NCBI RefSeq assembly: GCF_018780385.1
Contig: NZ_JADMJO010000025.1
Coordinates: forward strand, 9,994 to 73,993
Source: Hydrogenophaga sp.
Lineage (GTDB): Bacteria > Pseudomonadota > Gammaproteobacteria > Burkholderiales > Burkholderiaceae_C
Length of the DNA: 64,000 nucleotides
Direction: 5' to 3'
Shown here: piece by piece, positions 2,767 through 59,655 of the stretch
Position numbering within the stretch: position 1 is the stretch's first letter
How the letters are laid out: every line of letters begins with the position of its first letter
Translations under genes and position numbers: made by a program
The notes under the pieces: model-generated
What the model saw: the letters and a program-made list of their open reading frames with translations, nothing else
The model's database searches: none
Told to the model about the DNA's origin: nothing

Positions 2767-5700
2767 ATGCATCTTTTGTCTACCCGACCCGGCGGCCACG
2801 TGGAAGACGCTGGCCTGGGCGTGGTGCGCGTCGCGCAAACGCCCGCCGACATCGTGGTTCTTACGGTGGCCGACACCACGTTGTCCCTGCTGGCAGAAGC
2901 GGTGGCGGCGCTGCCGCCAGATTTCCCGACCGTGCGCCTGGCCAATCTGATGTGGCTGCGGCAGCCCGCATCGACCGACATGTACGTTGACGACGTGCTA
3001 CGCCACGCCCGTGTCGTGGTGATCGACCACCTGGGCGCACCAGCGGACTGGGCTTATGTGGTGGAACAGGCGACGACGCTGGCTCGCCAGCACGACCAGT
3101 GGCTGGCCATGTTTTCGGGCGAGCAGTTGGAGGACCCACAGTTGCTGTTGCGCAGCACAGCAGCAGTGGAGGACAGCCGTTTTCTGTGGCAATGCCTGCG
3201 CGAGGGCGGTCGCGACAATGCCCGCGCCTTTTTTGACTTGATCGCGTACCGCGCGCTGGGGCGGGGGTCTTTGCCCGCGCTGCCACAGCCCTTGCCGCCC
3301 GTCGCACGCTACCTTCCTGCCCTGCCACCGGCCTGGCTGGATGGTGCACCGGTGGCCCTCGTGCTGTTTTACCGGGCCCATGCGCAGACGGGCAATACAG
3401 CGGTGTTCGACGCCCTGATGATGGCCTTGCACCGCGAGGGCGTCAACCCGCTGGCCCTGGCGCTGGACTCGCTGAAGTCGCCCTCGTCACTGGCGGCCGT
3501 GCATGCCCTGGCTGCCGAGCACTCGGTCGATGTCGTGCTCAATGCCACCAGCTTTGCAGTCGGTGCCATGGGCGACGATGGCGCCGACGGCGTGGACGCT
3601 CCACTGCTCGCCGGCGACGCGCCGGTGCTGCAACTCATCACCGCCGGCTGCGCGCGTGAGCAGTGGCAGGCCGATCCGCACGGCCTGCAGCCGCGCGACC
3701 TGGCCATGCAGGTGGTGCTGCCCGAAGTGGACGGCCGCATCGGCACCCGGGCCATCAGCTTCAAGGGCGTGGCCTGGCGCTGCGAGCGCTCGCAGGTGGA
3801 TGTAGTGCGCTACCAGCCAGAGGCCGACCGGATTGCATTCGTCGCCGAGCTTGCCCGGCGCTGGTGCGTCCTGCGCCGCAAGCCGGCGGCCGATCAGCGC
3901 CTGGCCCTGGTGCTGGCCAATTACCCCAGCGACGACGCCCGCCTGGCGAATGCCGTGGGCTTGGACACCCCGGCCTCGGTGGTGGGCATCCTAGGCGCGC
4001 TGCAGGCCCAAGGCTATGCAACGGGCGAGCTGCCCGCACACGGCGACGCCCTAATGGCGCGACTGATCGAGGGCGTAACCCACAAAGTGGACGCCAACGA
4101 CCATCGCCCCGTCGGGCAAAGCCTCTCCATGGCCGACTACCTGGCTGACTTTGAAGCCCTGCCCCCTGACCAGCAGGCCGAGGTCAACGCGCTGTGGGGA
4201 CCACCCGAGAAAGATCCGTTGTTGCGCAGCGGCCGCTTCATGGTGCCGGGCCTGCGCGTCGGCCAGGTCTTCGTCGGCCTGCAGCCGGCCCGCGGGCGCG
4301 ACCTGGACCTGGTCGCAAGCTACCACGATGCCGACCTTGTGCCCCCGCACAACTACCTTGCGTTTTACTTCTGGTTGCGCCGCGTCTGGGGCGCCGATGC
4401 GCTGGTACATGTGGGTACGCACGGCAACCTGGAGTGGCTGCCGGGCAAGAGCGTGGCGCTGGGTGCGGGCTGCTGGCCAGATGCGATCTTCGGGCCGCTG
4501 CCCCACCTGTACCCTTTTATCGTCAACGATCCGGGCGAAGGCAGCCAGGCCAAGCGGCGTACGCAGGCGGTGATCATCGACCACCTGATGCCGCCGCTGA
4601 CGCGGGCCGAAACCTACGGGGCGCTGCAGGTATTGGAGCGGCAGATGGACGAGTACTACGAGGCTCTGTCGCTCGACCCACGCCGCGCCACTCGGTTGCG
4701 CCAGACCATTCTGGAGGAAGTGCTGCGCCACGGCTTGCACGCCGACCTGGGTTTTGAGGCGCCCGCCGACGAAGCCGCACGCCAGCGCCTGCTGGAACGG
4801 CTGGACGCCTACCTGTGCGAGATCAAGGAATCACAGATCCGGGACGGTCTGCACGTGTTCGGTCTGTCGCCTCAAGGGCGTTTGCGGACCGATACCCTAC
4901 TTGCTCTGGTGCGGTTTCCACGCGGCAAAGGCCAGAGACAAGCCAGCTTGTTGCAAGCCTTGTCAGCCGACCTGCGGCTGGACGGATTCGACCCGCTCGA
5001 CCCCAACTGGAACCATAACTGGACCCAGTCGCGCCCACCGGTACTGGCAGCCTTAGGAAACGAAGCCTGGCGCCATGCGGGCCACACCCGTGATCGGCTG
5101 GAGCGATTGGCCAGCCGTCTGGTGGACGGCAGCGAACCTCTGGACCGCGCCAAGTGGCCGCTCACCGCGCAGGTGATGGACGAGCTGCAGGAGCGGCTCG
5201 GCCCCCGGCTGGACGCCTGCGGCGAGCAGGAAATGACCCAGCTGCTGCGCGGCTTGCGAGGCCGTTTTATCCCCCCCGGACCGAGCGGCGCGCCATCGCG
5301 CGGACGGCCGGACGTATTACCCACCGGCCGCAATTTCTACGCAATCGATACGCGCGCGGTGCCTACACCCACCGCCTACGCCATGGGCGTAATGGCGGCC
5401 GAGCGGCTGATCGAGCGCCATCTGCAGGACCACGGCGGGTTTCCAGCGTCGATCGGGCTTTCGGTCTGGGGCACCAGCACCATGCGCACTGGCGGCGAAG
5501 ACATCGCCCAGGCCATGGCACTGCTGGGCGTGCGGCCCAAGTGGGCGCCGGGCAGCCAGCGCGTAGTGGACATCGAGGTGCTCCCGATGGCGATACGTGA
5601 CCGTCCTCGGGTGGACGTGACCTTGCGCATCTCGGGTTTCTTTCGCGACGCTTTTCCGAATCTGATCGACCTGTTCGACACGGCGGTTAAGGCGGTGGCG

Positions 5701-6555
5701 GCCATCTCGCTAGAAGACGAGCCCGACGACGTGAATCCAGTGCGTGCTCGCGTGCAGCGCGAGGCGGCCGATACGTGTTCCCAAGGGATGTCCGAAGAGG
5801 TTTCGCAGAGGCAGGCCAGCTGGCGTGTTTTCGGCCCGCGGCCGGGCGGCTACGGCGCCGGCGTGCAAGACGTCATCGACAGTGGGCGCTGGGAAGCGCC
5901 GGGTGACATCGCCCAGGCCTACCTGCGTGCGGGCGCCTTTGCTTACGGCCAGGACGAACACGGTGCGGCGGCGCGCGCCAGCTTCGAGCGGCGTGTGGGC
6001 GGCTTCGATGTGGTGCTGCAGAACCAGGACAACCAGGAACAGGACATCCTGGATTCAAGTGACTTTTACCAGTTCCAGGGCGGCATGGCTGCCGCGGTAC
6101 AACACCTGAGCGGCAAGGCGGCGTCCATGTACCACGGCGACTTCAGCACACCTGGATCGCCGCGCATCCGCAGCCTGAGTGACGAACTGGCGCGGGTGGT
6201 GCGGGCCCGCGTGGTCAACCCCAAGTGGATCGCGGGTGTGCAACGCCACGGCTACAAGGGTGCCTCCGAGATGGCTGCCACCGTCGACTCCCTTTTCGGC
6301 TTTGACGCAACCACTGGCCTGGTGGGGGACCACCAGTACGCGCTTGTGGCCGATGCCTACGTGTACGACCCTGTCAACCGCGCCTTTCTTGAACAACACA
6401 ACCCCCAGGCCTTACGCAGCATGGGCGAACGCCTGCTTGAATCCATGCAGCGTGGTATGTGGCAGGAACCCGGCGAGCATCGGGAGCGCATCGAACAGAC
6501 CTTGTTGGCACTGGAACACCGGCTCGAAACTCAGGGCGAAGGACCCACGAAATGA
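2767..6555 (+). CDS. cobN: cobaltochelatase large subunit CobN
   Basis: 1262 aa; MHLLSTRPGG start, HVGTHGNLEWLPGK, PTGRNFY, RISGFFRDAFP, NPKWI motifs. Confidence 0.95.
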   Translation: MHLLSTRPGGHVEDAGLGVVRVAQTPADIVVLTVADTTLSLLAEAVAALPPDFPTVRLANLMWLRQPASTDMYVDDVLRHARVVVIDHLGAPADWAYVVEQATTLARQHDQWLAMFSGEQLEDPQLLLRSTAAVEDSRFLWQCLREGGRDNARAFFDLIAYRALGRGSLPALPQPLPPVARYLPALPPAWLDGAPVALVLFYRAHAQTGNTAVFDALMMALHREGVNPLALALDSLKSPSSLAAVHALAAEHSVDVVLNATSFAVGAMGDDGADGVDAPLLAGDAPVLQLITAGCAREQWQADPHGLQPRDLAMQVVLPEVDGRIGTRAISFKGVAWRCERSQVDVVRYQPEADRIAFVAELARRWCVLRRKPAADQRLALVLANYPSDDARLANAVGLDTPASVVGILGALQAQGYATGELPAHGDALMARLIEGVTHKVDANDHRPVGQSLSMADYLADFEALPPDQQAEVNALWGPPEKDPLLRSGRFMVPGLRVGQVFVGLQPARGRDLDLVASYHDADLVPPHNYLAFYFWLRRVWGADALVHVGTHGNLEWLPGKSVALGAGCWPDAIFGPLPHLYPFIVNDPGEGSQAKRRTQAVIIDHLMPPLTRAETYGALQVLERQMDEYYEALSLDPRRATRLRQTILEEVLRHGLHADLGFEAPADEAARQRLLERLDAYLCEIKESQIRDGLHVFGLSPQGRLRTDTLLALVRFPRGKGQRQASLLQALSADLRLDGFDPLDPNWNHNWTQSRPPVLAALGNEAWRHAGHTRDRLERLASRLVDGSEPLDRAKWPLTAQVMDELQERLGPRLDACGEQEMTQLLRGLRGRFIPPGPSGAPSRGRPDVLPTGRNFYAIDTRAVPTPTAYAMGVMAAERLIERHLQDHGGFPASIGLSVWGTSTMRTGGEDIAQAMALLGVRPKWAPGSQRVVDIEVLPMAIRDRPRVDVTLRISGFFRDAFPNLIDLFDTAVKAVAAISLEDEPDDVNPVRARVQREAADTCSQGMSEEVSQRQASWRVFGPRPGGYGAGVQDVIDSGRWEAPGDIAQAYLRAGAFAYGQDEHGAAARASFERRVGGFDVVLQNQDNQEQDILDSSDFYQFQGGMAAAVQHLSGKAASMYHGDFSTPGSPRIRSLSDELARVVRARVVNPKWIAGVQRHGYKGASEMAATVDSLFGFDATTGLVGDHQYALVADAYVYDPVNRAFLEQHNPQALRSMGERLLESMQRGMWQEPGEHRERIEQTLLALEHRLETQGEGPTK

Positions 6556-8323: not shown

Positions 8324-8748
8324 CTCCAAAAACCGACCTCAGCACGACTGAGCTCATCATTTGCACCACCTGCCGCCCTGCGGAGAACACGCGAGATCAG
8401 CGCGCTGCAGGTGACATTCTGTTGGAAGCCGTGCAAACCGCACAGGCCTTCGGCGATCAGCCCGAGTGGGCCGCTATTCATGTGCGAGGGGTGGCGTGCA
8501 CGGCCGGCTGCTCGCGCGCCTGCACGGTGGCTTTTCAGGCTCCTGGCAAGCACAGCTTCCAATTTGGCGACCTGACCCCCTCAGAGGACGCTGCCCGGCA
8601 ACTGCTGGATTGCGCCGTGATGCATTTTCGGGCGCCCGATGGCAACTTGCCCCGCGATGCCCGCCCTGCCCTTTTGCGCAGCGGCATCCTGTGCCGCCTG
8701 CCACCGACCCGTTCATCCGCTGAAAGCAATCATGACGCGGGCCGTTGA
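8320..8748 (+). CDS. DUF1636-family Cys-rich metal-binding protein
   Basis: ICTTCR, VACTAGCSRACTVAFQAPGKHSFQFGDL; ATGA overlap with previous stop. Confidence 0.75.
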   Translation: MTPKTDLSTTELIICTTCRPAENTRDQRAAGDILLEAVQTAQAFGDQPEWAAIHVRGVACTAGCSRACTVAFQAPGKHSFQFGDLTPSEDAARQLLDCAVMHFRAPDGNLPRDARPALLRSGILCRLPPTRSSAESNHDAGR

Positions 8749-9487
8749 AAGTCCGGCCGTGCAAGCCGCCGCGGCAGACACCGACCTGACCGGGGCGACG
8801 GCCCCGGAGCACGTTTTTTCGCCGGCTCAGCAGGAGGCCGTCTACCGCGCCATTTTCGAGCGGCGCGACATGCGCCACTTTGCCGGCGGTGCGGTTGCGC
8901 CGGCTGTGATGCGCCGCCTGCTCATGGCCGCGCACCATGCGCCCAGCGTGGGCTTCATGCAGCCGTGGCGCTTCCTGCGGGTAGCCACGCGCGCGTTGCG
9001 GGCCGAGTTGCAGGCGCTGGTGGAGCAGGAGCGGCAGCAAACCGCCACGGCGCTGGGAGAGCGCATGGATGCGTTTTTGCGCCTCAAGGTCGAAGGCCTG
9101 ATGGACGCGGCCGAGGTCTGGGTGGTGGCGCTGTCCGAGGGCCGTGAACAGCATGTGTTCGGCCGGCGAACCTTGCCGCACATGGACCTCGCCTCGACCG
9201 CCTGCGCGATACAGAACCTGTGGCTGGCCGCGCGCGCCGAGGGCCTGGGCATGGGCTGGGTTTCGATGTTCGACCCGGTGGCGGTGGCTTCATTGCTGGG
9301 TATGCCCGAAGGCGCAGAGCCCGTCGCGCTGCTGTGCATTGGCCCGGTCCGCCATTTTTATGATGACCCCATGCTCCAGCAACAGCGCTGGGCACAGCGA
9401 ACGGCACTGGACGATGTGCTGTTTGAAGACGCTTGGGGCCAGCCCCTGAGCGCGGGCGGGACGGCGGGCTCGGGACGTGGCGATTGA
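8732..9487 (+). CDS. bluB: 5,6-dimethylbenzimidazole synthase BluB
   Basis: RRDMRHF, AHHAPSVGFMQPWRF, CAIQNLWLAARAEGLGMGWVS. Confidence 0.9.
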   Translation: MTRAVESPAVQAAAADTDLTGATAPEHVFSPAQQEAVYRAIFERRDMRHFAGGAVAPAVMRRLLMAAHHAPSVGFMQPWRFLRVATRALRAELQALVEQERQQTATALGERMDAFLRLKVEGLMDAAEVWVVALSEGREQHVFGRRTLPHMDLASTACAIQNLWLAARAEGLGMGWVSMFDPVAVASLLGMPEGAEPVALLCIGPVRHFYDDPMLQQQRWAQRTALDDVLFEDAWGQPLSAGGTAGSGRGD

Positions 9488-9944
9488 TCCAGATCGCCTC
9501 AAGGAAATGATACGGAAAATGAACGTGCAGATCTCTCATGCCGACGCCTGACCTCGTCATGAGCCTCGTCGGTTGGTTCACCCCCCGACGCAGCCGTACT
9601 GACCGGCGCGGTACTGGTCGGGCTGGGGCTGGATGACTGCAGCCCCCTTAATAGCCGTTGTTGTTGCCGTAACGCTGACGGGTGAGTCGATGACGGCTTC
9701 GTGCCAGCCAGCGTCTACCCAGCTCGTGACCACGACCGACGGCTGTCGCTGCACAGCCGAAGTACAGGTCCGTGCGGCGAAGGACTGCAACAGTCAGGAG
9801 TACTGCCGTGACTGGCTTGAAGCGCTGACCACGACAACCACGGGTGGTCCGATTCAGGCGACAAGCCTGGAGCTCTGAACCACAATCTCAACCGTTGACG
9901 GCCACGCCATACATCGGCACCCCTGCGGTGCCAACTTCAACCAA

Positions 9945-10002
9945 CCCGCCGGGTGCACTCATTGCCCGGTCGGGCTTTCGAGGCTCCCGGCTTTTCTTTT
10001 TT
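9945..10002 (+). terminator. intrinsic terminator with alternative upstream stem (attenuator-like)
   Basis: UUCG-capped stem 9971-9989 plus TTTTCTTTTTT; 9971-9974 can instead pair with 9945-9948. Confidence 0.5.
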
Positions 10003-10011
10003 GGAAAAACC

Positions 10012-10185
10012 ATGAACGTCAAAGACCAAGCCCGCAACTGGATCAAGACTGTGGTGGGCAGCCATATCGGCCGCAACATCCGGACCTCCAAGTTCGTCAC
10101 TTACACGGGCGAGACCAGCCACAACCAACTCGGTGGCGTCAGCTACCTGATGCCAAACGCGCCACCCGAGGAATCGCGCCGCTGA
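10012..10185 (+). CDS. small hypothetical protein (57 aa)
   Basis: ATG after GGAAAA; MNVKDQARNWIKTVVGSHIG reads like a natural protein. Confidence 0.5.
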   Translation: MNVKDQARNWIKTVVGSHIGRNIRTSKFVTYTGETSHNQLGGVSYLMPNAPPEESRR

Positions 10186-10453
10186 GTATTTGATCCTCGC
10201 AGGTGAATGCGACGCCTGACAAAGCGCAGCCCTGATACCCTGGCGCTTCACCAACGCAGATCACCTCTGGATCGCAATCCAAATGGGCTCCCAAGCGAGC
10301 CAGTTTCGCCTGGGGGTTGTTGCTGTTTGCGTCCAGTGGGTGAGGCGTGGCGTAGGGGTTGAACAATCCCTCGCGGATAGCTGGAAGCAATGACGCAAGC
10401 TCCTGAGCCAACGCCATTGCAGATGAACTCACAGAACACGCTTCAGTCATCAT
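10139..10453 (-). pseudogene. truncated uracil-DNA-glycosylase-like gene
   Basis: LFNPY and VICVGEAPGYQGCALSGVAFT motif; reading ends shortly after, C-terminal half absent. Confidence 0.55.
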
Positions 10454-10628
10454 GGTTCCCGAACTGGTCGATGCTGCCGTGGTTGTGGGTAACGGCCCGC
10501 CCCCCGCCGCTGGAGCCTTCTTCGTCTTCATCACCGCCACCAATCCCACTTGCAATCCCTTTGAGTGCAAGGAAGATCACGAATCCCACCACACACAAAA
10601 TCAGCAAAGATTCCATTTCGTTCCCCTA

Positions 10629-10976
10629 TCAAGAGTTCAAGCGCCACTCAGGCAGCGCCATGTTCTTTTTCACGGCCAACGTCATCATGGCCACCGTCTT
10701 CACATACGCCAGCCGCTGGCCGAAGGTCTTGGGCTCGGGCATGTCCCGCAGTCCCAGCTCGTCGACCATGTCCTCCAGAAGCGGGTCCAGGTGGGCGGCG
10801 TGCTTCCACTCCGACACCACCACCTCGGGGCGGCTGATGTGCAGCTTGATCTTCAAGAGATCGCGGCCGTAAAGGCTCCCCAGCAGCCAGTGAGGCTCTT
10901 TGGCGGCGGCCTCGACGGGAGCGTAGTGCTCGCGGAAGTCTGCAACGGTCATATCGATTTCGGCCAGGTAAGACAT
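10629..10976 (-). CDS. hypothetical protein
   Basis: 115-aa ORF with GC3-rich codons and RBS-like AGAGGA; no motif recognised. Confidence 0.6.
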   Translation of the reverse strand: MSYLAEIDMTVADFREHYAPVEAAAKEPHWLLGSLYGRDLLKIKLHISRPEVVVSEWKHAAHLDPLLEDMVDELGLRDMPEPKTFGQRLAYVKTVAMMTLAVKKNMALPEWRLNS

Positions 10977-11103
10977 TTTTGTCCTCTCTTTCGGTTTGCT
11001 TGAAACTAGGTTCTCACGTATCAAGCTCGTGTCAAGGGTGCTTCAAACGAAAAAAAGGGCCGACATTTGTCAGCCCCCTTTCATGCTCAGATCGCGCTTG
11101 CGT

Positions 11104-11448
11104 CTAGTGCGCCGCCAGTTTGTAGGTCTCACCGAACATCCGTCCGAAACTGTTGAGTTCAGCTTCGTCGGTTTCGTTGTTCACCACGCTCGCTGCCGGT
11201 ACAGACGCCGCGCTCGCCTCGGCGGAATCTACCGCTGACCGATGTGGTGTGACCGGCGCTTGCGGTGAGGAGATTCCCCCGTTTCGCAACATATCCTTCC
11301 TGAACAGCCACCCAAGATAAGCCAGCTGGTACACGGCGTTCGAGAGAGTCGATGGGTCCAGCCCGTCCAGATGCTCCATCAGGCCATCGGCGTCCTTTGG
11401 AAAGCGAAGGCGCACCCGCACGCCAGTTCCTTCTTTGGATGTAGCCAT
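11104..11448 (-). CDS. putative ParR-like partition adaptor
   Basis: small ORF immediately downstream of ParM-like gene; N-terminal VRVRLRF beta-strand and acidic tail fit a ribbon-helix-helix adaptor (inference). Confidence 0.5.
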   Translation of the reverse strand: MATSKEGTGVRVRLRFPKDADGLMEHLDGLDPSTLSNAVYQLAYLGWLFRKDMLRNGGISSPQAPVTPHRSAVDSAEASAASVPAASVVNNETDEAELNSFGRMFGETYKLAAH

Positions 11449-11465
11449 GCTCGTTGCTCTCCGGG

Positions 11466-12554
11466 TCAACGGTTCGCACTGCCCATGCGCTGGGTGTACT
11501 CGGCGACGATCTGGAATCCCCGCACGTTCGAGAAGGCCGCGCCGGCATCGATGCGAAGGCGAGGGCGCAGCTCCGGGTGGTGTTCGCGCAGAAAGTCGTA
11601 GAACACAGCCCCACCACCACCACCACAGACCAGGATGCTGTGAAAGTCCTCCAGAGCACCGATCGTGTCCAGCATCGCATCGTAGCCCCCGCGCAGCACG
11701 TCGCTGATGGCTCCAGAGAAGTCGGACATCGCATATTCCACACCCGAGATCCGGATCGTCTCCTTGCGCTCGCGAATCGCGGTGTCGATTTCTTGGATGA
11801 TGCTGTACTGGCCGCGCAGGCTTGGGTTGATCATCTTGGCCACGGCCGAAGCGCAGGCCAGCATTGATTCCGGATGAGCACCGGACCGCTCGTAGTTGGG
11901 AGCCTTGTCACGGGCAACAAGGAAGTCGATGGTGCCACCGCCCACGTCGATGACGAGGTTCCACCCGCTCAGATTGAAGTCGGGATGGGTCAGGCCGTAG
12001 TTGTACAGAGCGCCCATAGGTTGAACCATCACCGAGGCATCCACCACCGTGACATGGCGAGCGCCCAGTTGGGGATCAGGGCTCACGACTTCATGCCGAC
12101 CCACCACGAGGCTGCGGAGTCGATCACGTTATTCGAGGTACGTGTTCAGAGGCAATCCCACCGTCAGGTGCTCGATGGCCATTTCCTGCGGGTTGCCTGC
12201 ATCCTCCAGCATGTAGTGCATCGCGCCGCGCATCAGCGCCAGGTACGCGGGAGAGGTGCAGTAATCCTTCATCACGTGCCGTGGCTGGATGCCCTTCAAG
12301 TGCATGTCTACCCCTCGGCCTGCAAAGTGGGGGACGCCGTTGACTTCGCTGATACAGCCGTCAGCACCGTGCGAACCAGGCGCGTGCATGAACGTGGCAT
12401 TCGGGCGCAGCGTGGCAGTGATCGAGGGGAACAAGTCGGCGTGAACCATGTTGATCCCGTTGACCTGCTTGCGCCCGCAGGTGTACTTGGTGTTGGCGTA
12501 GCCCACGTCGATTGCTCGAGCTGGGACGCTGGTGATGTTCGTATCGCGTTTCAT
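11466..12554 (-). pseudogene. parM: ParM/StbA actin-like ATPase (PRTRC protein D-like) with single in-frame TAA
   Basis: RAIDVGYANTK, VGLP, QPMGAL, IDVGGGTID, CGGG, NVRGF; YLE*RDRLR stop at 12129-12131 joins two same-frame ORFs; RBS aaggag. Confidence 0.8.
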
Positions 12555-12648
12555 GGGACTCTCCTTGAAGAAATTGCATGCACGGGGTGTGCTGGTAGGG
12601 GAGTTTCTGGTCGCATGCTCAAGTGCGCAAGCGATGGCGACCAGTCCT

Positions 12649-12841
12649 TGGCCCGGAGTGACCCGCACCGGGCCACGCCGGGCCAGGTCAACAGTCAAAA
12701 AGCGACACAACGGATTGGGAGCTGGCCCGGAGTGGCCCGCACCGGGCCACTCCGGGCCATGCCAAGCACATGCGGACAGGAATAGTGCCAAGAGCTTCTT
12801 CGGCTGGCCCGGAGTGGCCCGCGCCGGGTCACTCCGGGCCA
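12649..12841. repeat. three 37-bp palindromic repeats, parC-like centromere candidate
   Basis: TGGCCCGGAGTGGCCC-N5-GGGCCACTCCGGGCCA at 12649, 12723, 12805; half site at 12911-12921. Confidence 0.8.
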
Positions 12842-13058
12842 GGGAGTGTTGTTCTTCAACAGGCGGCTTCGCCTTCAGTGAACGCCATCGCAACCCTCGA
12901 ACGTTCCGAACGGAGTGGCCCTTTCACTCAGGTCATGAAGGGGAGGTGCGACAGAAAAGGAACGCTTAAAGACAGAGTGATAACAAGAGGGTTGTTTCGC
13001 AAGCCATTTTTTCCAACATATAAAGAGAGGAAAGGGGGGAGGAAAACTTTCTTTAGTC

Positions 13059-13067
13059 TGTGGATAA
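13059..13067 (-). promoter_or_regulatory. perfect DnaA box
   Basis: TGTGGATAA is the reverse complement of TTATCCACA; single copy, so function uncertain. Confidence 0.35.
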
Positions 13068-13120
13068 CCCGACGACAGAACGCATATCGCGAGGGGTTGC
13101 CCACAACTGGTCCGCATCGA

Positions 13121-13149
13121 ATGACAAGATGTGGCACAGCCCCTAATAT
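13121..13149 (+). promoter_or_regulatory. sigma70-like promoter
   Basis: ATGACA (13121-13126), 17-nt spacer, TAATAT (13144-13149). Confidence 0.5.
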
Positions 13150-13155
13150 CCGTTT

Positions 13156-13990
13156 CGCTGTACCTCGGTACGTCGACATCCCGGTTCACACCAGTGATGT
13201 CCTAGCCCACCGGGCAAACCGCCAACCGACGCTCCACTGTGAGTGTCCTAAGGCAAAAAGTCGGCCTCCCACGTTGGAAGTCGCAAACCAAGACGGTGCT
13301 CTGTATGGGGCATCGCAAAACAGGTCGCATAAAGACCAGCTGCTGAATCCGCGATGCGGTTCGGAAGTGGTGGCCCCCGGATGGGGATTGCCCACAGCAA
13401 GCTAACTAGGCCTTCCTATGGAAGCCGCCAGCCAACGCTCCGAGCTACGGAGCATGTGTGGACGCGCAAGCGTAAAGAACAACTCACGTTTTGACTTCGC
13501 TCTGACGACTACTTTCGGGTGGCTCGTCACAAGTACCTCCCGCCTGGCAATTGAGCCGGGAGCCCTCTGGGCCTAAAAAGGGGCAGGTTGGACAAGTAGC
13601 AAAGGACAACGCCGCCAAATCAGTCTGGCGGTGAAGTGAGTTCACCTGGGTAGTGAATAACTACTCTGGTCTAGCCCACCACACAAGGCTCTGTCTGAAG
13701 AAGACAGTACCCCCCCAACGCCATCACTGCGTTGGGGTGCTCATCCAGTAAGGATGAGGGTCACATGGGGATTCCACCTATGCCGACAGGATGGCTTGCT
13801 AACGAAAAACGGAAACCACTGAAGACTGTTGTGCCTTGCCCAGGGGCCTTGTACCGGGCGACCAGTAGCGAAACACGAAAAAAGGAGCCAGAGCGATCTG
13901 GCGGTTTGAGGTTGCCCGGAGGGTTGACACATGCAGGTTGCGAGAGCCGCCTTCAGGTGTGAACCCTCTGCGGTAGAGGCCACGTCAGTA
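13156..13990 (+). ncRNA. candidate large structured RNA / very long leader of the recombinase gene
   Basis: more than 12 local hairpins with G-U pairs and GCAA, GCGA, UUCG tetraloops; 10-nt complement 13183-13192/13956-13965; no credible ORF. Confidence 0.5.
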
Positions 13991-14003
13991 AAGGAGCGTC
14001 AAG

Positions 14004-15494
14004 ATGGATGAAGGTAAACATTTGGGTATGGGAGATGCATCTACAGGTGGGACAGGAGGCGGGCGTTCGTATAACGGTGCTCCATTCCGGCCGAAGAAGA
14101 AAGCAACGATTCCCCGCAAATCGCGTGCACAGACCTTGAAGCGGGGAGGTCCTGGCAGCGCCAAACCACGTTCTGACCACGCCATCGCCTTGTATGCGAA
14201 CGACCCGCACAAACAGATGGCAAATTTTCTGGACGGGCTGGATCCGCAGGCCTTCATAGGACGTGTACGTTCGGTGTCGCACCTCACGGAAACGCGCTTC
14301 GGTCAAACCCTCAAACGCATGATCGGTGAACTAAGCGAACTGAACATGCCGATCCAGCGCATCGACCAGGTCAGCCGCCGCCACGTGGCTGCCCTGGTTG
14401 TGCGTTGGGTGAACGAGGAAAAACAGGTGGCTGCTACCGTCAACAACAAGGTGAGTTTCATTCGCAAGTTTTGCGAACTCATCGGCAAGGTGGGCGCGAT
14501 CCCCAAGGGAGAGGAGTGGTACCAACTTCTGGAATCGAAGGGAGTACCGCGCAGCGCCTTGGTGCGCCAGCAGGTGGCCTATGGCAGCAAGACCTGGAGC
14601 GCTGCAGGGATTGAACCCATCGGCATTGCTGCGCTGTTGGCGGAGGATCATTACCACGAGTCATTGCTCATCGAGCTGATGTATTACTTCGGGTTGCGGG
14701 TGTCGGAAGCGCTCAGTCTCAACCCCACCCGGGCAGACGTTGTGGGAGGTCTGCTGTTGACGTCAGGCACCAAGGGCGGAAAGGATCGGCTGGTTCCATA
14801 CATGGAAGGTGCTGAAATGAAGGCCAAGCAGCGTGAGGTGCTGAACCGCGCGATCGACTGGATGAACAAGAACAACCGCCGCGGTGACATGGGCTACCCG
14901 GGACTGTCAATGGAGAAGTCGCGTCAGAAGTACTACAACACACTGTACGCGGTGGGCGTGACGAAAGCTGATCTGGGAATTGTCAGCCATGGTCTGCGGC
15001 ATGAGTACGCTGCAAACTTGTTCGAGCAACTCACTGGACATCGCCCACCGGTGGAGGGGCAGGAGCCGTCGGATTGGTTCAAGAAGAACCGGGAACTGGT
15101 TGATCACGCCTACCTCATGGTGTCGGAGGCCTTGGGGCACTGGCGAAAGAGCATCTCAGCTGCGTACTTGGGCTCCATCGCAGGGATGAGCAAAACGCAG
15201 AAGGTTCGCATCGAAAAGCTGATCGAGATGTTCCAGAACACACCCGGCGTCGCCGAAGGCTTGCTTGCGGTGGGGATTGAGCGTGCGTGGCTGACCGGTC
15301 GCGGTGGTCAAGGCGTCCAGTTGGCGCCTAACGAGCGCGTGCAACTCACCGTGTCGTTGAAGGAGGGCGTGTTGTGGTCTGTTCTCAACGACGCGCACGC
15401 CGTACTCGAAAAGTTGCTTCCTGGGCGTGTGATGGTCGCGCCATTGCTCGGTGGCGTGCAACCCGATGACGGCGTGGAGGTTTTCCTGGACTGA
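14004..15494 (+). CDS. tyrosine recombinase (integrase-domain protein) with C-terminal extension
   Basis: GLRVSEA (R), GTKGG (K), HGLRH, LGHWR, SAAYLG (Y); RBS aaggag. Confidence 0.9.
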   Translation: MDEGKHLGMGDASTGGTGGGRSYNGAPFRPKKKATIPRKSRAQTLKRGGPGSAKPRSDHAIALYANDPHKQMANFLDGLDPQAFIGRVRSVSHLTETRFGQTLKRMIGELSELNMPIQRIDQVSRRHVAALVVRWVNEEKQVAATVNNKVSFIRKFCELIGKVGAIPKGEEWYQLLESKGVPRSALVRQQVAYGSKTWSAAGIEPIGIAALLAEDHYHESLLIELMYYFGLRVSEALSLNPTRADVVGGLLLTSGTKGGKDRLVPYMEGAEMKAKQREVLNRAIDWMNKNNRRGDMGYPGLSMEKSRQKYYNTLYAVGVTKADLGIVSHGLRHEYAANLFEQLTGHRPPVEGQEPSDWFKKNRELVDHAYLMVSEALGHWRKSISAAYLGSIAGMSKTQKVRIEKLIEMFQNTPGVAEGLLAVGIERAWLTGRGGQGVQLAPNERVQLTVSLKEGVLWSVLNDAHAVLEKLLPGRVMVAPLLGGVQPDDGVEVFLD

Positions 15495-15521
15495 GTTGGA
15501 ACACCGTGGCTGGGCGTGGAG

Positions 15522-15760
15522 CTATGCCGGGTTGGATTGGGTGCTCGTTTCTGGTGTGCCTTTGAAAGCCAGCACGAGCATCAACATCCCGGCCACTGGC
15601 GGAATGCAAAGCAGCAATGCCCACCAGCCGGAGCCCAAACCATCGCGAGATTGCTTGATCACCTGCAATGCGATGGCCAGCAGGACCCAGGAGGAACGCG
15701 ATACCACCGAAAAGGCTCTTTGCCTGCACTCGGGTGCCCGTTGAGGCAATGAATGTTCTC
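15522..15760 (-). pseudogene. DUF805-like membrane protein C-terminal fragment
   Basis: RDGLGSGWWALLLCIPPVAGMLMLVLAFKG resembles the DUF805 signature; N-terminus missing. Confidence 0.4.
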
Positions 15761-15813
15761 TCGGCCCCTGATGGCCACCCAAATTCCCTCAACTGAACTG
15801 ATCGGGGATAGGG

Positions 15814-16380
15814 TCACCCACCTTCAAAGGCAACCCCACCACGCAACCCGAGCGGGGCAAAAACCGAGAGGTTGGACTGACCTACTCCAGCGGTCTGCAC
15901 GAGGTCAAGGTCACGCGATTTGACAACCGGGTGAAGGGTTTCATCACATTGCAACCGGCTGTGGGTAACGTACCGCGCGCTCGCATCGAAGGATGGTCGT
16001 TGGCCTACACCGGTGCGGCGGGCGCGTGGAGCTGGTATACCAATCTGGAACTGCTGGACGCACGTAACGAGCTCAACCTGCGCAAGCTGCAGCGCCGCGC
16101 CGACGAAGTGCTCACCGCCAGCGTCGACCACAAGGTCGGGGCCTGGAAATGGGGCGCCTCGCTGCAACTGGTCTCCGAGCGTTTCGACAACGCGGCCAAC
16201 ACGCAGCGCCTGCCGGGCTACGGCACGCTCGATCTGCACGCGCGCTACACCGTGAACAAGGACTGGTCGGTGGCCCTGCGTCTGAACAACGTGGGCGATA
16301 AGTTCTACGAAACTGCCTACAGCTACAACCAACCCGGGCGTGCGGCCTACGTAACGCTTAACTGGGCACCGCAGCAGTGA
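15814..16380 (+). pseudogene. btuB: C-terminal fragment of BtuB-like TonB-dependent receptor
   Basis: GNPTTQPERGKN...LNNVGDKFYETAYSYNQPGRAAYVTLNW; upstream in-frame stop at 15799, about two thirds of the gene missing; coupled to cobB. Confidence 0.75.
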
Positions 16381-17720
16381 TGCAACACTGCCCCGCAGTC
16401 CTAGTGGCAGCCCCGGCCTCCGGCCAGGGCAAGACCACTGTAGCCTGCGCGCTGGCGCGTCTGCATGCGCGGGCGGGTCGCCGGGTGCGTGCCTTCAAGT
16501 GTGGGCCCGACTTCCTGGACCCGCATTGGCTCGCGCTTGCCACGGGCCACCCCGTGCACAACCTCGACCTGTGGATGACGGGCGAGGACGATGCACGCGC
16601 ACGGCTGCACGCAGCGGCCAGCGAGGCCGACCTGATCATTGTCGAGGGTGTGATGGGGCTGTTCGACGGTGAGCCAAGCGCGGCCGACCTGGCCCAGCGT
16701 TTCAGCCTGCCGGTGCTGGCGGTGATCGACGCCTCGGCCATGGCAGGCACCTTCGGCGCACTCGCTTTCGGCCTGCAGCACTTTCGACCTGGACTGCCTT
16801 GGGCCGGAGTGTTGGCCAACCGCGTGGCCAGCGAACGCCATGCGCAGATGTTGCAGGACGCGTTGTCGGGCGAGGGCTCGCGCACGGACTCGAATTTGCT
16901 GGGCGCGGTCATGCGCAATGAAGCGTTTTCGCTGCCGGAGCGTCACCTGGGACTAACGGTAGCGTCTGAAATTCCCGATGCGCTGGCGCGCCTGGACGCG
17001 GCCGCCGACGCACTGGCCGCCACACCGCTTGGGCGCATGGACGCTGCTGCGCTGGCACGCTGGTCGGTGAGTTTCGAACCGACGGTGGAGATTCCTGCCC
17101 AGGCGCCCTTGCTCGCCGGCCGGACCATCGCCATTGCGCGCGATGCATCGTTCTGTTTTGTCTACCCTGCCAACCTCGACGTGCTGCGCGGGCTGGGCGC
17201 GGAGTTGGCTTTCTTCTCGCCGCTGGCCGATGAGGCGCTGCCGTCTTGTGACGCGGTATGGCTGCCCGGAGGCTACCCCGAGTTGCATGCGACCACCCTG
17301 GCAGGCAGCACGGTATGTCGTGCGAGCCTGATCGAGCATGTGAACGCGGGCGGTCCGCTGTGGGCGGAATGCGGCGGCATGATGCTGCTGTTTGACGAGT
17401 TGCTGACCCTCGACGGAGAGACGCATGCGATGTGGGGTTTGCTGCCGGGTTCCGTGACCATGCAGAAGCGCCTGACCGCGCTTGGGCCTCAGCGGCTCAC
17501 GCTGCCTGCGGGCGCGTTGCGTGGCCACACGTTTCACTACTCGCGTTGTGTATCCACGCTCGAACCGGTGTGCCGCACCGAGCCGGCGCGGGCGGGCGCC
17601 AGCGGTGCGGGTGAGGCCGTGTTTCGTTCGGGCTCGGTGCATGCAAGCTATTTCCACGCCTGGTTCGCTTCCAATCCCGAAGCCACCGCTTCGCTGTTCC
17701 TGTCAGGAGACACTGATTGA
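16377..17720 (+). CDS. cobB: cobyrinate a,c-diamide synthase
   Basis: SGQGKTT, FKCGPDFLDP, EGVMGLFDG, LPGGYPELH, AECGG, SYFH. Confidence 0.92.
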   Translation: MMQHCPAVLVAAPASGQGKTTVACALARLHARAGRRVRAFKCGPDFLDPHWLALATGHPVHNLDLWMTGEDDARARLHAAASEADLIIVEGVMGLFDGEPSAADLAQRFSLPVLAVIDASAMAGTFGALAFGLQHFRPGLPWAGVLANRVASERHAQMLQDALSGEGSRTDSNLLGAVMRNEAFSLPERHLGLTVASEIPDALARLDAAADALAATPLGRMDAAALARWSVSFEPTVEIPAQAPLLAGRTIAIARDASFCFVYPANLDVLRGLGAELAFFSPLADEALPSCDAVWLPGGYPELHATTLAGSTVCRASLIEHVNAGGPLWAECGGMMLLFDELLTLDGETHAMWGLLPGSVTMQKRLTALGPQRLTLPAGALRGHTFHYSRCVSTLEPVCRTEPARAGASGAGEAVFRSGSVHASYFHAWFASNPEATASLFLSGDTD

Positions 17721-37157: not shown

Positions 37158-38465
37158 TTAACCCATGAGCTTTTCAGTGGCGAATTCTAGAAGCTGTAAC
37201 TGGGTAGGTTCACCCCAGGTCTGAAGGCCTACCCAAGTGAAGTAGGCCGTTTTGGCTGCCTTCCCTGGCTTCGCTCCAATCCGCAAGCCCGGAAGTTCTT
37301 GCTGTGCGTTGTAGCGCTGGATCAAAGCATCTTGGTCTGCAGGGTCGAGTTCATTGAAATACCCCTCTGCCTGTTTTAGCTGCTCGGCCATGTACTGCTC
37401 TATGAGTTTGTCCGCGGCGGAAGCCTTCCGTCCAGGGAGTGCCTTCTTGGCATCCGCGTTGGCAAGAGGCGAGTCCACGATAGCCCAGTTGTTTTTCAAG
37501 GCTTGACGAAGGTAGGCGGCCGGGTTTTCCACAGGCGCCGCGCGCTTGTCTGCCATCCTGCGCTTGACGTACGCGACCGCAGCGGACAGTTCTTCAATTT
37601 GGTGTTGAGTGGTCAGTCTTTTTGCTTCGGATTGCAGCAGACCGATGTTGACCATCTCCCCCACCAGCTTCATCACTCGCTCGTCATCGATCACCACTTC
37701 AAGCTGTGGCGGTCCGGGTTTGTGGACGGTGAACCAAATGTTCTTGATTCGGCGGCCCTCGTGGGTTTCCATCAGTTCAACCTGAATGTCCGCTTGTGAG
37801 TTCACCTCAGCCACACTAGGCTTGAGCACCTTTTGCTTGAAGTACTTGTACTCAAGGTATGACTTGGCCTCTGTGGATTCCCCGAGAACCATGTCCCTGA
37901 AGCTCTCCCAAGGAATCTCCGCAGTCCTGCCGATGCGCTCGAAACGGACACAGAACTCGTACAGAGCCAGCGATGAGGCCCGTCTGAACTTCGCCACCAC
38001 ATTCATGTCGATCATCGCGTACATGTCGGGGTTTAGCACTTGGTCGCGCAGTTGCGTGCTGATTCTGTAGCGGACCACCTCGGCTGTCATCTCCACATCT
38101 GGAAATAGAACGGAGGCTTTCCACTTGGGACGTTTGCCTTCAACGGCCACCACGTCCCACTCAAACACGATGCGCATCAACTCCAACGCGGAGTCTCGCA
38201 AGTACTCGCGGTTGTTGGAGTCGAATCCAATCTCTGTAGCCATGTCCGCAATGCGGATCGACCACCAACCCTCTTCGTCTGGCTTGTTCTGTACCGCGTT
38301 CTTCAGCCAGCTGTTGGATACTTTGCGCTGCACAAGCGACATCGGTGCCCGTGGCTTGCTGTGGACGACCTGAACAGCCTTCTTGTAAGGCTTGGGCACT
38401 TCAGGCACTTGGAACAGGGCAATTTGCCTAACTGCAGTGCGAGGAGTGTCGGATCGTTTTGCCAT
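37158..38465 (-). CDS. repA: Rep_3-type plasmid replication initiator
   Basis: LVQRKVSNSWL, SLALYEFC, YKYFKQKVLKPSVAEVN, GRRIKNIWF; adjacent iterons. Confidence 0.85.
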   Translation of the reverse strand: MAKRSDTPRTAVRQIALFQVPEVPKPYKKAVQVVHSKPRAPMSLVQRKVSNSWLKNAVQNKPDEEGWWSIRIADMATEIGFDSNNREYLRDSALELMRIVFEWDVVAVEGKRPKWKASVLFPDVEMTAEVVRYRISTQLRDQVLNPDMYAMIDMNVVAKFRRASSLALYEFCVRFERIGRTAEIPWESFRDMVLGESTEAKSYLEYKYFKQKVLKPSVAEVNSQADIQVELMETHEGRRIKNIWFTVHKPGPPQLEVVIDDERVMKLVGEMVNIGLLQSEAKRLTTQHQIEELSAAVAYVKRRMADKRAAPVENPAAYLRQALKNNWAIVDSPLANADAKKALPGRKASAADKLIEQYMAEQLKQAEGYFNELDPADQDALIQRYNAQQELPGLRIGAKPGKAAKTAYFTWVGLQTWGEPTQLQLLEFATEKLMG

Positions 38466-38646
38466 GAATCGCATTCTAGGGTGGAAACGCATTCAGATGC
38501 CTTCCACCAATGAAGGGATTCTTGGCTGTTGGTTTGGTTGTCACAACGACAGCCCCAACGTTGTTCTTTTTTGAAAAACACTTTGAACTCTTTAATACCT
38601 TTAGCCTGGCACAACCCCAGTGTTTATGCGGCCTGCAGCGTGCTGA

Positions 38647-44447: not shown

Positions 44448-44598
44448 GGAACTTGCGGAGGGCGCTCGGTGGGGCGTTGGTGGTTCAGCTCTCGCACGCG
44501 AACCTTGAAGCTCCGGACGCACCGTGTGGACCCGCTTCTGAGGTTGGGATCGGGAAAGGCAAGTGGTTGATTTTCAAAGCGTTTTCGGGAAAATATGT

Positions 44599-46732: not shown

Positions 46733-47950
46733 TCAGAACCAACGTGCAAGAACGGGGAGAAAGGCTACAGCCCAATCTCGTGCTGGAGGCGTGAGTTTGA
46801 GATAAATCACATGCGAAAGCAGGAGCCCTCCGACGACAAATGCGTCGATGACCCAAAGGATTACCCGTTGCGTGAAAGCGCGTTTTGACAGGTAGTTGAA
46901 TGTTCCGGTAAAGGAGTCTGCAACGGCGGCGAATTCTTTCTTGAGTTGCCGTTTCTGCCGATCAATCTCATCCCGCAGAACCGCCAGCGTATGCGACTGG
47001 TTATGCAGCAAGAAGATCATCAGAATGGCAAATACCCAACAACCAAGCAGAACCGCCGTATTGACCCAAAACTCGTAGCCAACTGCCTTGGCGTCTTTCA
47101 TCTGGGTTGCCACGATGATCGTGGCAACCGGGATTCCGAGCAGTTGGTTTTGTATCTCCGAGAAAACCTTATGGATCTTCCCGCTGTATTCCACCCTCGC
47201 TGCTTCGACTTGGTCTCTGACCTTCTCGTATGAGAATCCTGCTGCAAACAACTGGTATCCCTGCTCGAACTTCTTCTTGAGCTCGCCTGCGTTAGCCAGT
47301 AGGTGCCCAAACCGCTGTGCACCTGACAGATGTTCGGTGATAGAGATCACAGCCTCCGCGAGGATCGACGCGCACTGTTTCTCATGTGTGCCAGATGGAA
47401 TGAGATCCAGAATTTCCCGCACTACAGGAAGAGACATTTTTCTCAGGTCATCCGCGCCGTATTCAATGGGCAGTTCGAACTTACCGTCCTTGATGAAAAT
47501 GAGTGCTGGTTCGTCAACGTCCAGAAACGCAGCCGATCGTTTTAGCGTTTGAATAAAACGGAGCACCGTGCGGTAACGTGCCACAACATGATCTTCCGCG
47601 ACGAGATCGTTGCTGGAAATTCCCTCGGCCATCAAGAAGAACGATGGCTCTTTGATACGCGCTTTGCGAGCCCCAGAAAGCAGATCGCCGACATCATTTT
47701 TGAGCACACCAAAGCCAAGCCGGGGCGAAACCGAAATTTCAACCGATTGCCCGACGGCTAATGTGGATGGATCCTCTTCGTTGGCAAGCAAAAGATGCGC
47801 ATCGTGTGGCGCATCAATGCACGCCTTGAGCGCGGCGAGATCCGATGCTGTGCTGATCGAGAAGGTTCCACGAACAGGAGGCCCGTCTTGCCGATTGGCA
47901 AGACCCCGAACAACCTGGGTCAGGTCGTCCCAGGTTGCCTCAGTCGCCAT
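46733..47950 (-). CDS. unknown protein with C-terminal coiled-coil and ~3 TM helices
   Basis: hydrophobic LLGIPVATIIV, WVNTAVLLGCWVFAILMIFLL, VILWVIDAFVVGGLLL; 11-bp overlap with upstream gene. Confidence 0.75.
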   Translation of the reverse strand: MATEATWDDLTQVVRGLANRQDGPPVRGTFSISTASDLAALKACIDAPHDAHLLLANEEDPSTLAVGQSVEISVSPRLGFGVLKNDVGDLLSGARKARIKEPSFFLMAEGISSNDLVAEDHVVARYRTVLRFIQTLKRSAAFLDVDEPALIFIKDGKFELPIEYGADDLRKMSLPVVREILDLIPSGTHEKQCASILAEAVISITEHLSGAQRFGHLLANAGELKKKFEQGYQLFAAGFSYEKVRDQVEAARVEYSGKIHKVFSEIQNQLLGIPVATIIVATQMKDAKAVGYEFWVNTAVLLGCWVFAILMIFLLHNQSHTLAVLRDEIDRQKRQLKKEFAAVADSFTGTFNYLSKRAFTQRVILWVIDAFVVGGLLLSHVIYLKLTPPARDWAVAFLPVLARWF

Positions 47951-48962: not shown

Positions 48963-49194
48963 GAAAATCTCCTCCGGTGTGCGGCTATATCCGCTGTTGT
49001 TATCTGACCCTGCATTGTTACATCTGTTGACGATCCTGTCCGTTCGGGTTGTTCCGTGCAAGGTGCATCGCGCCCAGAGTTCAAAGTTTCCTTCATCCGG
49101 GCATTGGCCACCCCAAGGACGCACACCGGATCCGTCAAGCAACTGATGCTTCGGCCGTCCCGACCTTCGATATGGCTGTGCTACCGTCCTTGTT

Positions 49195-59109: not shown

Positions 59110-59655
59110 ATGGCCACGAAGAAAACAAGTCCCACATGGAGTGATATCAAGTCCAGTCTTGCCGGCCTGGACCGAACCGACCTGCTTGCCCTGGTTCAAG
59201 ACCTCTACACGGCCAGCAAGGACAACCAGGCATTTCTGCACGCCCGAATGCATTTGGGCGACGATGCCCTCAAGCCCTACAAGGCCGCCATCACCCGCTG
59301 GCTGTGGCCTGATGTGTTCAAGAATCAGGACACCTCAGTAGCCAAAGCCAAGAAGGCGATCGCTGACTACAAAAAGGCCGGTGGCCAGCCTATCGGGCTC
59401 GCAGAACTCAAGGTGTTCTATTGTGAAGAGGCCTCGGGTTTCGCTTGCGAGGTCGGTCTGCAAGACGAAGGCTTCTTTAATGCAATGGTACGAATGTTTG
59501 AGCAGGCGTTACGAGCCATCGGCACTTTGCCTGATGCACAGCGGCCCGCGTACTGGCTGCGCCTTGATGCGGTCCGGCAGCGATGTCACGACCTTGGCTA
59601 CGGAGTGAGCGACGAAATGCATGACTTGTGGGCTGCGCACGTGGACGATGTCTGA
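59110..59655 (+). CDS. hypothetical helical protein
   Basis: 181-aa ORF overlapping the start of the helicase gene. Confidence 0.7.
   Translation: MATKKTSPTWSDIKSSLAGLDRTDLLALVQDLYTASKDNQAFLHARMHLGDDALKPYKAAITRWLWPDVFKNQDTSVAKAKKAIADYKKAGGQPIGLAELKVFYCEEASGFACEVGLQDEGFFNAMVRMFEQALRAIGTLPDAQRPAYWLRLDAVRQRCHDLGYGVSDEMHDLWAAHVDDV

Follow-up and report, generated by a model that had tools for sequence, protein, structure and literature searches.

What lies between the partition gene and the recombinase gene of a plasmid-type module in Hydrogenophaga sp.? In the 64,000-nt stretch of contig NZ_JADMJO010000025.1 (assembly GCF_018780385.1, positions 9,994 to 73,993) analysed here, referred to as the window, the hairpin-dense interval 13121-14003 separates a divergent actin-like partition gene from a 496-aa open reading frame (ORF, 14004-15494) encoding a tyrosine recombinase. 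A sequence-only reading had proposed that this interval is transcribed into a large structured RNA together with the recombinase, possibly as its cofactor, guide or regulator, with a single-strand origin or a replication primer among the alternatives. We find that 13156-13968 on the + strand is very probably a genuine new structured RNA. It belongs to a previously undescribed, large (~810 nt), multi-domain class with about 30 helices, and we tentatively suggest, mainly from its genomic linkage, that it may act as a partner of the downstream recombinase.

A large structured RNA upstream of the recombinase gene

To what extent the interval could be coding was judged from homologous loci, which were collected through the recombinase protein from genomes, metagenomes and exact-protein look-ups. 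No stop-free stretch is conserved in any of the six frames across 15 homologues, 3-base periodicity of substitutions is absent (0.61/0.57/0.63), and indels are frequent and not multiples of three. Hidden coding potential was therefore rejected, in agreement with the sequence-only reading.

The + strand folds far more stably than its dinucleotide shuffles, with z-scores of -7.3 (20 shuffles) and -6.0 (25 shuffles), compared with -3.0 and -3.5 for the - strand. In the same two sets, same-length controls gave -1.7 and -0.2 for the recombinase ORF and 0 and +1.8 for the neighbouring actin-like (ALP) gene. The upstream regions of three other loci (L119, L120, and L057) also fold above chance, and there too the + strand gives the strongest signal. 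In all loci, the block corresponding to ~13100-13968 exceeds both flanking genes in conservation: RNA block identities of 84-93% go with 57-90% for the recombinase protein and 67-91% for the ORF DNA. Against locus L004, for example, the block is 88.6% identical, while the recombinase is 67.6% identical in DNA and 58% in protein and the ALP gene 71.6% in DNA; against the more distant L006 (44% protein identity) the block still reaches 71.6%. Long invariant junction sequences are kept even across lineages whose recombinases are only 30-44% identical. One homologue (L039, 723-1628) looks mosaic, similar to the L003 lineage in its 5′ part and to the L001 lineage in its 3′ part and recombinase, so that homologous exchange appears to take place inside the RNA gene.

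A consensus structure of the whole element was derived with RNAalifold from an alignment of 15 sequences (A4). Standard pairs occupy 95.9% of its pair cells, compared with 36-39% when the partners are slid, and double changes occur in 46 of the 193 pairs, compared with 21 in column shuffles and 8-14 after sliding. None of 500 shuffles reached the observed value on four of five measures, and 17 of 500 did so on the fifth (further pair types). The best-conserved part is a 160-nt core domain (13643-13802, + strand), from which a covariance model, R1, was built; in its 20-sequence alignment 25 of 41 pairs show double changes, a value that none of 500 shuffles reached, although fitting this alignment to R1 favours the count. 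At the 3′ end, a long terminal hairpin (13920-13967, + strand) is variable in sequence and has compensatory changes in 10 of its 15 pairs. The structure includes two long-range helices, 13396-13403/13793-13800 and 13481-13487/13636-13642. Several long-range helices were displaced in an alternative alignment (A5, plain MAFFT with the two most divergent sequences added). Since the two A4 helices named show compensatory changes by eye in L006 and L119, the A4 structure was retained and A5 was set aside.

Eleven of the 12 hairpins named in the sequence-only reading are helices of this consensus, and the twelfth (13965-13979) occurs only in the window and L007. Two of its finer observations did not survive comparison. 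The pairing that was to link the two ends of the element (GGTTCACACC, 13183-13192 with 13956-13965) is exact in the window, but its 5′ partner is absent in 5 of the 15 homologues and mismatches are uncompensated; the 3′ partner sits instead in the strongly covarying terminal hairpin. Likewise, the repeated decamer CTAGCCCACC is not co-conserved in the homologues.

Could the conserved structure be one of single-stranded DNA, or the interval a DNA-level site, rather than an RNA? Single-strand initiation or a single-stranded DNA promoter in conjugative entry, recombination sites, or an invertible switch would all be conceivable for modules that sit on conjugative plasmids, and comparative methods cannot cleanly tell single-stranded DNA from RNA (Weinberg et al., 2017, PMC5737381). 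The same work describes ARRPOF and other conserved structured non-coding plasmid motifs, thought to act in replication and possibly as single-stranded DNA, which average 223-349 nt and are thus much shorter than the ~810-nt element, and no Rfam family was matched here. The loops, the strand preference, and expression point to RNA. GNRA and UNCG tetraloops are RNA motifs, and most lineages keep both classes: the loop at 13466-13469 is GNRA in most homologues (GCAA, GUAA, or GCGA; GUUA in L119 and L053), and the loop at 13514-13517, the UUCG site of the sequence-only reading, remains a UNCG- or CUUG-type tetraloop in the majority, UUCU in L007 being one of the exceptions. G-U cells far outnumber A-C cells in the consensus (284 vs. 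42), which points to the + strand, although this test is partly biased because the structure was predicted on that strand. Moreover, the multi-branched architecture is unlike that of single-stranded DNA promoters as generally known, and the region is present in RNA runs. We therefore consider a DNA-level explanation, including the inverted repeat discussed below, very unlikely.

No known family accounts for the element. A scan with the 4227 families of Rfam 15, which include group I and II introns, RNase P, tmRNA, 6S, ROOL, GOLLD, OLE, HEARO, STAXI, and ColE1 RNAI, gave no match anywhere in the window at gathering thresholds and, with E-values up to 10 over 12700-14300, none inside 13121-14003. 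The element had no blastn match among PLSDB plasmids and GenBank phages, two conserved-pattern scans of IMG/VR gave chance matches only, none of which aligned to it, and we found no description in the literature of this RNA or of any RNA linked to a tyrosine recombinase. The checks set beforehand by the sequence-only reading concerned folding energy, homologous upstream regions, and known elements; the z-scores proved strongly negative, the upstream regions conserved and covarying, and no known element was matched.

Transcription toward the recombinase gene

A sigma70-like promoter (13121-13149, + strand; ATGACA-17-TAATAT) precedes the element, with a predicted start near 13156. This promoter, named already in the sequence-only reading, is the sole sigma70-like match in 12500-15800, although 0.9 are expected by chance, and it is kept at the same place in homologues, in a weaker form in L119 (TTGCTG-17-TATCTT). 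The start itself is insecure, as three RNA-run contigs already start upstream of it, at 13077, 13101, and 13136.

Expression was read from assembled contigs of public runs, which carry neither strand nor transcript ends. In RNA-Seq run X34, one contig (13823-14174) crosses the junction between the RNA and the ORF, and others cover the ORF and not the ALP gene. Run X33 contains only 13682-13868, at a depth of 35, and the metatranscriptomes X21 and X22 yield contigs over 13101-13748, with hardly any coverage of the ORF. Two co-listed, DNA-like runs of the same sample (X20 and X40) are uniform, with a depth of 57-98 for the matching strain. These patterns fit an RNA portion that is transcribed, relatively abundant, and able to be co-transcribed with the gene, so that transcription and co-transcription are partly shown, by assembled contigs of RNA runs. 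No terminator was found between the element and the ORF, and the co-transcription proposed earlier is probable.

Given this arrangement, the element may simply be a cis-acting 5′ leader with no separate existence as an RNA, which would regulate the recombinase mRNA through its translation, its stability, or its premature termination. Such a leader could, for instance, hold a dangerous enzyme at low levels or tie its production to the state of the plasmid. The two lie in the same transcription unit, the Shine-Dalgarno sequence of the recombinase gene (AAGGAG, 13991-13996, + strand, 7 nt before the ATG) is within 25 nt of the last conserved hairpin, and the runs that show the leader without the ORF are what attenuation would give. 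Known bacterial leaders, however, are far smaller and simpler, whereas here ~30 helices are kept at 30-44% protein identity. Further, the segment adjoining the ribosome-binding site is the least conserved part of the RNA, the opposite of what a translational switch predicts. A leader acting purely in cis is accordingly, in our view, improbable.

Linkage to a clade of long-form recombinases

How far does the RNA follow the recombinase? With an nhmmer profile, the element is detected even where the recombinase is 34% identical (L053, L054, and L119; E = 2e-25). R1 yields full-length matches in L057 (3e-12), L059 (3e-9), L119 and L053 (5e-5), and L120 (1e-3), all on the + strand just upstream of the recombinase gene, and finds the core in every long-form locus that contains the stretch, down to 30% protein identity. 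Down to that depth, the RNA always lies between a divergent Alp/ParM operon, with its centromere repeats, and a long-form recombinase gene. By contrast, 62 loci of shorter or truncated relatives gave nothing better than E = 0.28 with R1. The ~1-kb gaps of such short-form loci were considered as possible sites of a related RNA and rejected, as they show no homology and mostly weak folding: in the six loci folded, the intergenic regions are mostly weakly structured on the strand of the gene (z -1.2 to -2.8). Two loci with shorter recombinase relatives, L056 (~1237-1722) and L060 (~1496-1978), have in common a ~495-nt non-coding stretch, 70% identical, upstream of the gene, possibly a different upstream element or one that has diverged strongly.

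The size, complexity, and mobile-element residence of the RNA invite another explanation, namely that it works independently of the recombinase, as a large non-coding RNA that belongs to a mobile element and is comparable to ROOL, GOLLD, or OLE, and that the recombinase gene is transcribed by read-through. Like ROOL, GOLLD, OLE, and raiA, which measure 600-800 nt, it has many covarying helices, and ROOL and GOLLD also reside on plasmids or prophages; the RNA portion without the ORF in X33 and in X21 and X22 would suit this explanation as well. Unlike these RNAs, to which it has no match in sequence, structure, or covariance model, it is constantly paired with one kind of protein gene and keeps its place within a partition-recombinase module, and adjacency and orientation are strictly kept over deep divergence. 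No copy apart from the recombinase was seen in the IMG/VR, PLSDB, and GenBank phage scans, a weak test. An RNA independent of the recombinase thus seems hardly probable to us.

The recombinase and its possible RNA partner

The protein encoded at 14004-15494 (+ strand) consists of core-binding and catalytic domains and two extra regions. It matches the Pfam Phage_integrase and SAM-like N-terminal domains, its AlphaFold model has a mean pLDDT (the confidence score of the model) of 81.6, and Foldseek relates its fold to XerA, IntI4, lambda Int, and Cre with a probability of 1.0. The residues R232, K257, H329, R332, H379, and Y388 are invariant in 19 homologues. By these sequence and model features it is a member of the tyrosine recombinase superfamily, predicted to be catalytically complete, as the sequence-only reading had it.

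The two extra regions are specific to the RNA-linked clade, and neither has a Pfam match. At the N-terminus, residues 1-46 are disordered and followed by a basic conserved motif, KSRAxTLxRGGxGS. At the C-terminus is an additional alpha/beta domain (residues ~385-496, window 15156-15491), which, modelled alone (pLDDT 88.8), resembles minimal nucleotidyltransferases (MntA/MNT and the CD-NTase core). The Foldseek match to MntA is weak (E 6e-3, TM ~0.5), and the domain has TGR...ER[IV] in place of the usual GS...DxD.

We tentatively favour a reading in which the RNA would be made from the conserved promoter as the 5′ part of the recombinase transcript, fold into a stable body, and form a ribonucleoprotein with the product of the recombinase gene that follows it. 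In this complex the RNA could act as a scaffold or as a subunit for specificity or regulation, and the protein would probably contact it through its basic N-terminal motif and its additional C-terminal domain. This reading is suggested by the deep and strict linkage and orientation, the co-transcription, and the clade-specific protein extensions, together with a structural conservation typical of ribonucleoprotein or catalytic RNAs. In its boldest form, which we regard as rather doubtful, the protein would be the first RNA-dependent tyrosine recombinase, with a ribozyme-sized RNA, encoded in the leader of its own enzyme, needed for site choice, synapsis, or control of the recombination that maintains a megaplasmid.

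Several observations weigh against a partnership. The interaction itself, like the substrate of the enzyme and the exact ends of the RNA, is inferred, in the case of the interaction from linkage, and because the Alp/ParM operon is likewise always present, linkage to the recombinase cannot be separated from linkage to this operon. The loci were found through the protein, so the linkage counts cover recombinase-bearing loci. A guide role, which the sequence-only reading had raised, finds no backing: among 14 loci with flanks of up to 8 kb, no recurring or covarying complementarity between the RNA and the flanking DNA was found, and divergent loci share no match of at least 11 nt at any one position of the RNA. 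What matches there are lie at or near chance, apart from isolated 9-10-mers without covariation, and matches to the covarying inverted repeat described below do not covary. The RNA also varies little among lineages, unlike a programmable guide. The RNA-run contigs, some of which begin upstream of the predicted start, are of low depth and could include DNA carry-over. Finally, DnaA-box-like sites and an AT-rich stretch just upstream of the RNA fit an origin of replication.

Upstream DNA and the possibility of a replication origin

Do the sequences upstream of the promoter point to replication? The AT-rich stretch (12990-13058) has ~40% GC by eye, compared with ~58% locally, and is followed by a DnaA-box-like site at 13059-13067 (TGTGGATAA, reading TTATCCACA on the - strand) and a second, weaker one at 13097-13105 (+ strand, TTGCCCACA). 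Such sites (at most one mismatch) occur in six of seven independent lineages, compared with an estimated ~0.16 expected per locus. Their distance from the RNA promoter downstream is conserved, and the box of L120 is a perfect TTATCCACA.

These features are best compared with oripLS20 of the Bacillus plasmid pLS20, a ~1.1-kb origin that has no rep gene, lies beside alp7AR, contains conserved DnaA boxes, and works by an unexplained mechanism (PMC8557374). The present module is similar in layout: ~1.1 kb of non-coding DNA without a rep gene adjoins an Alp7A-type operon (the neighbouring gene carries Pfam ALP_N), the centromere repeats precede that operon, and the positions of the DnaA-box-like sites are conserved. 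The main rival of the partner reading is therefore a Rep-less, DnaA-assisted plasmid origin that depends on a structured transcript, either a primer or an origin-activating RNA, comparable to oripLS20 or to ColE1 RNAII, with the recombinase as a neighbouring multimer-resolution gene. RNA-level selection would be expected for a primer RNA too, and RNAII is likewise a long folded transcript under structural selection in a plasmid maintenance region, from which transcription runs on downstream. The replication-primer alternative mentioned in the sequence-only reading thus gains weight from the DnaA-box-like sites, the AT-rich stretch, and the pLS20-like layout with its Alp/ParM operon.

The differences are nonetheless considerable. 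oripLS20 has been found only in Bacillus, its other neighbour is rap/phr instead of a recombinase gene, and no RNA has been described for it. Here, the DnaA boxes lie upstream of the promoter and not at the 3′ end of the RNA, no iterons are present, and neither an antisense promoter for a copy-control RNA such as RNAI nor any other promoter-like site was found on the - strand; there is also no Rfam match to ColE1 RNAs, and the hosts are large conjugative plasmids of Betaproteobacteria with Rep proteins. The RNA tracks the long-form recombinase clade, while shorter relatives adjacent to ALP genes do without it, and in all lineages it runs directly into the ribosome-binding site of the recombinase gene. 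In the complete plasmid NZ_CP044976, a canonical trfA and a gene with a ParB domain lie 100 kb from the module, the genes on both sides of the module are co-oriented, and GC skew is without inflection. The module was accordingly rejected as the main origin of that plasmid, given trfA elsewhere, no flip in strand bias, and an uninformative GC skew; with trfA elsewhere, it is not the main replicon and is not needed as the sole origin there. On balance, we think an origin unlikely.

Besides the DnaA-box-like sites, the DNA upstream of the RNA contains a long-range inverted repeat of 15-18 nt. Its left arm (12633-12647, degenerate in the window, GATGGCGACCAGTCC) lies 79-93 nt upstream of the ALP start codon, and its right arm (13101-13118, CCACAACTGGTCCGCATC), the most conserved piece upstream of the RNA, ends two bases before the -35 hexamer. 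The arms are 454 nt apart in the window and up to ~630 nt in other loci, and 94-100% complementary in L003, L004, and L007 (in L003 at 4415-4429 and 5061-5075). Their sequences differ by lineage yet covary (GATGCGGACCAGTTG, CGACCTGGCTCTCCA, and TTCCGGCCAGTTTGG), with paired changes seen in the L051 and L119 lineages. The two arms enclose the centromere-like array, each lying next to one of the divergent promoters, and the repeat is most simply interpreted as a shared operator of the two promoters or as binding site(s) of the recombinase.

A covarying inverted repeat that flanks a ~450-630-bp centromere segment next to a tyrosine recombinase gene also recalls invertible switches (fimS-like or Bacteroides-type). 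However, the segment has the same orientation in all window-like and L006/L051-lineage assemblies (15 distinct loci), no inverted joint was seen in the contigs of three deep DNA runs (X1-X3), where rare variants would escape, and the repeat lies outside the structured block. An apparent joint on opposite strands in run X40 was traced to a divergent strain and a palindromic repeat, and inversion of the segment was rejected.

Between the arms of the inverted repeat, the candidate centromere of the partition operon (parC/alpC-like, 12649-12847) is made up of three 43-nt palindromic repeats. Weak microRNA-like Rfam matches at 12716-12865 (E up to 10) are hairpin artefacts on these palindromes. Centromere-like arrays occupy the same place in other loci (L001 4542-4735, L004 4453-4692, L006 4473-4704, and L120 5421-5522) but are lineage-specific, comprising 43-nt palindromes, clusters of 10-bp-phased GGCCA repeats, GGGCCAAAAATGGTCCC units, or TGGACAGAAA palindromes, and they vary even where the neighbouring RNA is ~85-89% identical.

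The module and its surroundings

The RNA belongs to a plasmid-maintenance module of conjugative megaplasmids of Comamonadaceae, which is found in Hydrogenophaga, Limnohabitans, Polaromonas, and relatives and has a fixed place in large conjugative plasmids. Two of these are complete circular conjugative megaplasmids: pPBL-H3_B2-1 of Hydrogenophaga sp. PBL-H3 (NZ_CP044976, locus L119) and plasmid 1 of Polaromonas sp. JS666 (L120). The order of the module is constant: small ORFs, the Alp/ParM gene on the opposite strand, lineage-specific centromere-like repeats, the AT-rich stretch, DnaA-box-like sites, a conserved motif, the promoter, the RNA, and the recombinase gene.

In the window, the module segment spans 9793-15726 and consists of small ORFs (without Pfam matches), a truncated UDG, the Alp/ParM operon, the non-coding region, and the recombinase gene. 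By blastn against L001, L004, and L007, homology to the window begins at 9793 and stops at 15717-15723, beyond which the other loci remain homologous to one another. Module-bearing contigs of X20 and X40 continue into different sequence past 15726, and cobB-side contigs of these runs diverge from the window before 15813. By these boundaries, the window copy is a module fragment embedded among cobalamin genes. The Alp/ParM gene (11466-12554, - strand), which encodes the partition ATPase and whose homologues match Pfam ALP_N and are annotated as ParM in NZ_CP044976, is a pseudogene in the window, split into two in-frame ORFs by an in-frame stop (12129-12131). A related strain in run X20 has a sense codon at this place (T12129G). 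The UDG-like gene (10139-10570) is shortened by a ~1.26-kb deletion (at ~10154) relative to L001, L004, and L007.

The right edge of the module adjoins the 3′ part of a TonB-dependent receptor gene (15727-16380), which is btuB-like by its C-terminal sequence (ending in YVTLNWAPQQ) and lacks its 5′ part; the strain in X20 and X40 has other sequence before 15813 in this fragment. Cobalamin genes lie around the module at 2767-6555, 8639-9487, and 16377-17720 and include CobN, a nitroreductase-family gene (possibly BluB-like), and a CobB/CobQ-type amidotransferase, and no cobalamin riboswitch was found above the Rfam threshold anywhere in the window. Elsewhere, the window encodes a Rep3-type replication initiator (37158-38492, -), a DUF3701-type integrase (42036-44522, -), an NA37 nucleoid-associated protein (47940-49250, -), and a TOTE-type AEP primase-helicase (59621-62083, +). 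Because of these genes, the window may be part of a plasmid or bear further mobile islands. In groundwater runs X1-X3, a contig that matches the window at 12468-12518 and 13099-13119 carries a second, related Alp module at a depth of 109-247, compared with 67-156 for the contig of the window, so several module variants coexist in these samples.

Comparison with known systems and significance

Is there a precedent for an RNA in this position? The closest for the partner reading are the bridge (seek) RNA systems of IS110 and IS1111, mobile elements whose recombinase gene is likewise directly preceded, in the same orientation, by the gene of a structured non-coding RNA. Bridge RNAs are ~150-250 nt long and have two programmable loops. 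The RNA described here is ~810 nt, nearly invariant, and without covarying guide-like complementarity to the flanking DNA searched, and its neighbour is a tyrosine recombinase instead of a DEDD/serine-type enzyme. Cre/loxP, ResD/rfsF, and XerCD at cer/psi share with the present protein the tyrosine recombinase fold, the catalytic residues, and a location beside partition functions on large plasmids, and differ in having neither the basic N-terminus nor the nucleotidyltransferase-like C-terminal domain. To our knowledge, none of them uses or follows a large conserved structured RNA. Integrons (IntI with attI/attC) differ as well, as there is no cassette array here and the structure is continuous and multi-branched. 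Apart from the layout features in common with oripLS20, no known system is matched in its defining features. In a review of September 2026, tyrosine recombinases are still presented as enzymes that recognise defined DNA sites, and RNA-guided recombination is discussed only for seekRNA/bridge RNA (PMC13604230).

Both the partner and the origin outcome are testable in cultured strains that carry the module, Hydrogenophaga sp. PBL-H3 and Polaromonas sp. JS666. Bacterial RNAs of large size and intricate folding are, as far as we know, rare, and new biochemistry has emerged from nearly every class investigated. If the RNA is an active part of a Rep-less origin, it would provide a molecular handle on the unexplained pLS20-type mode of replication and show this mode outside Bacillus. 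If instead it is a true partner of the enzyme, the system would be categorically new, and RNA-assisted recombination would no longer be confined to the IS110 family but would include the best-known superfamily of recombinases.

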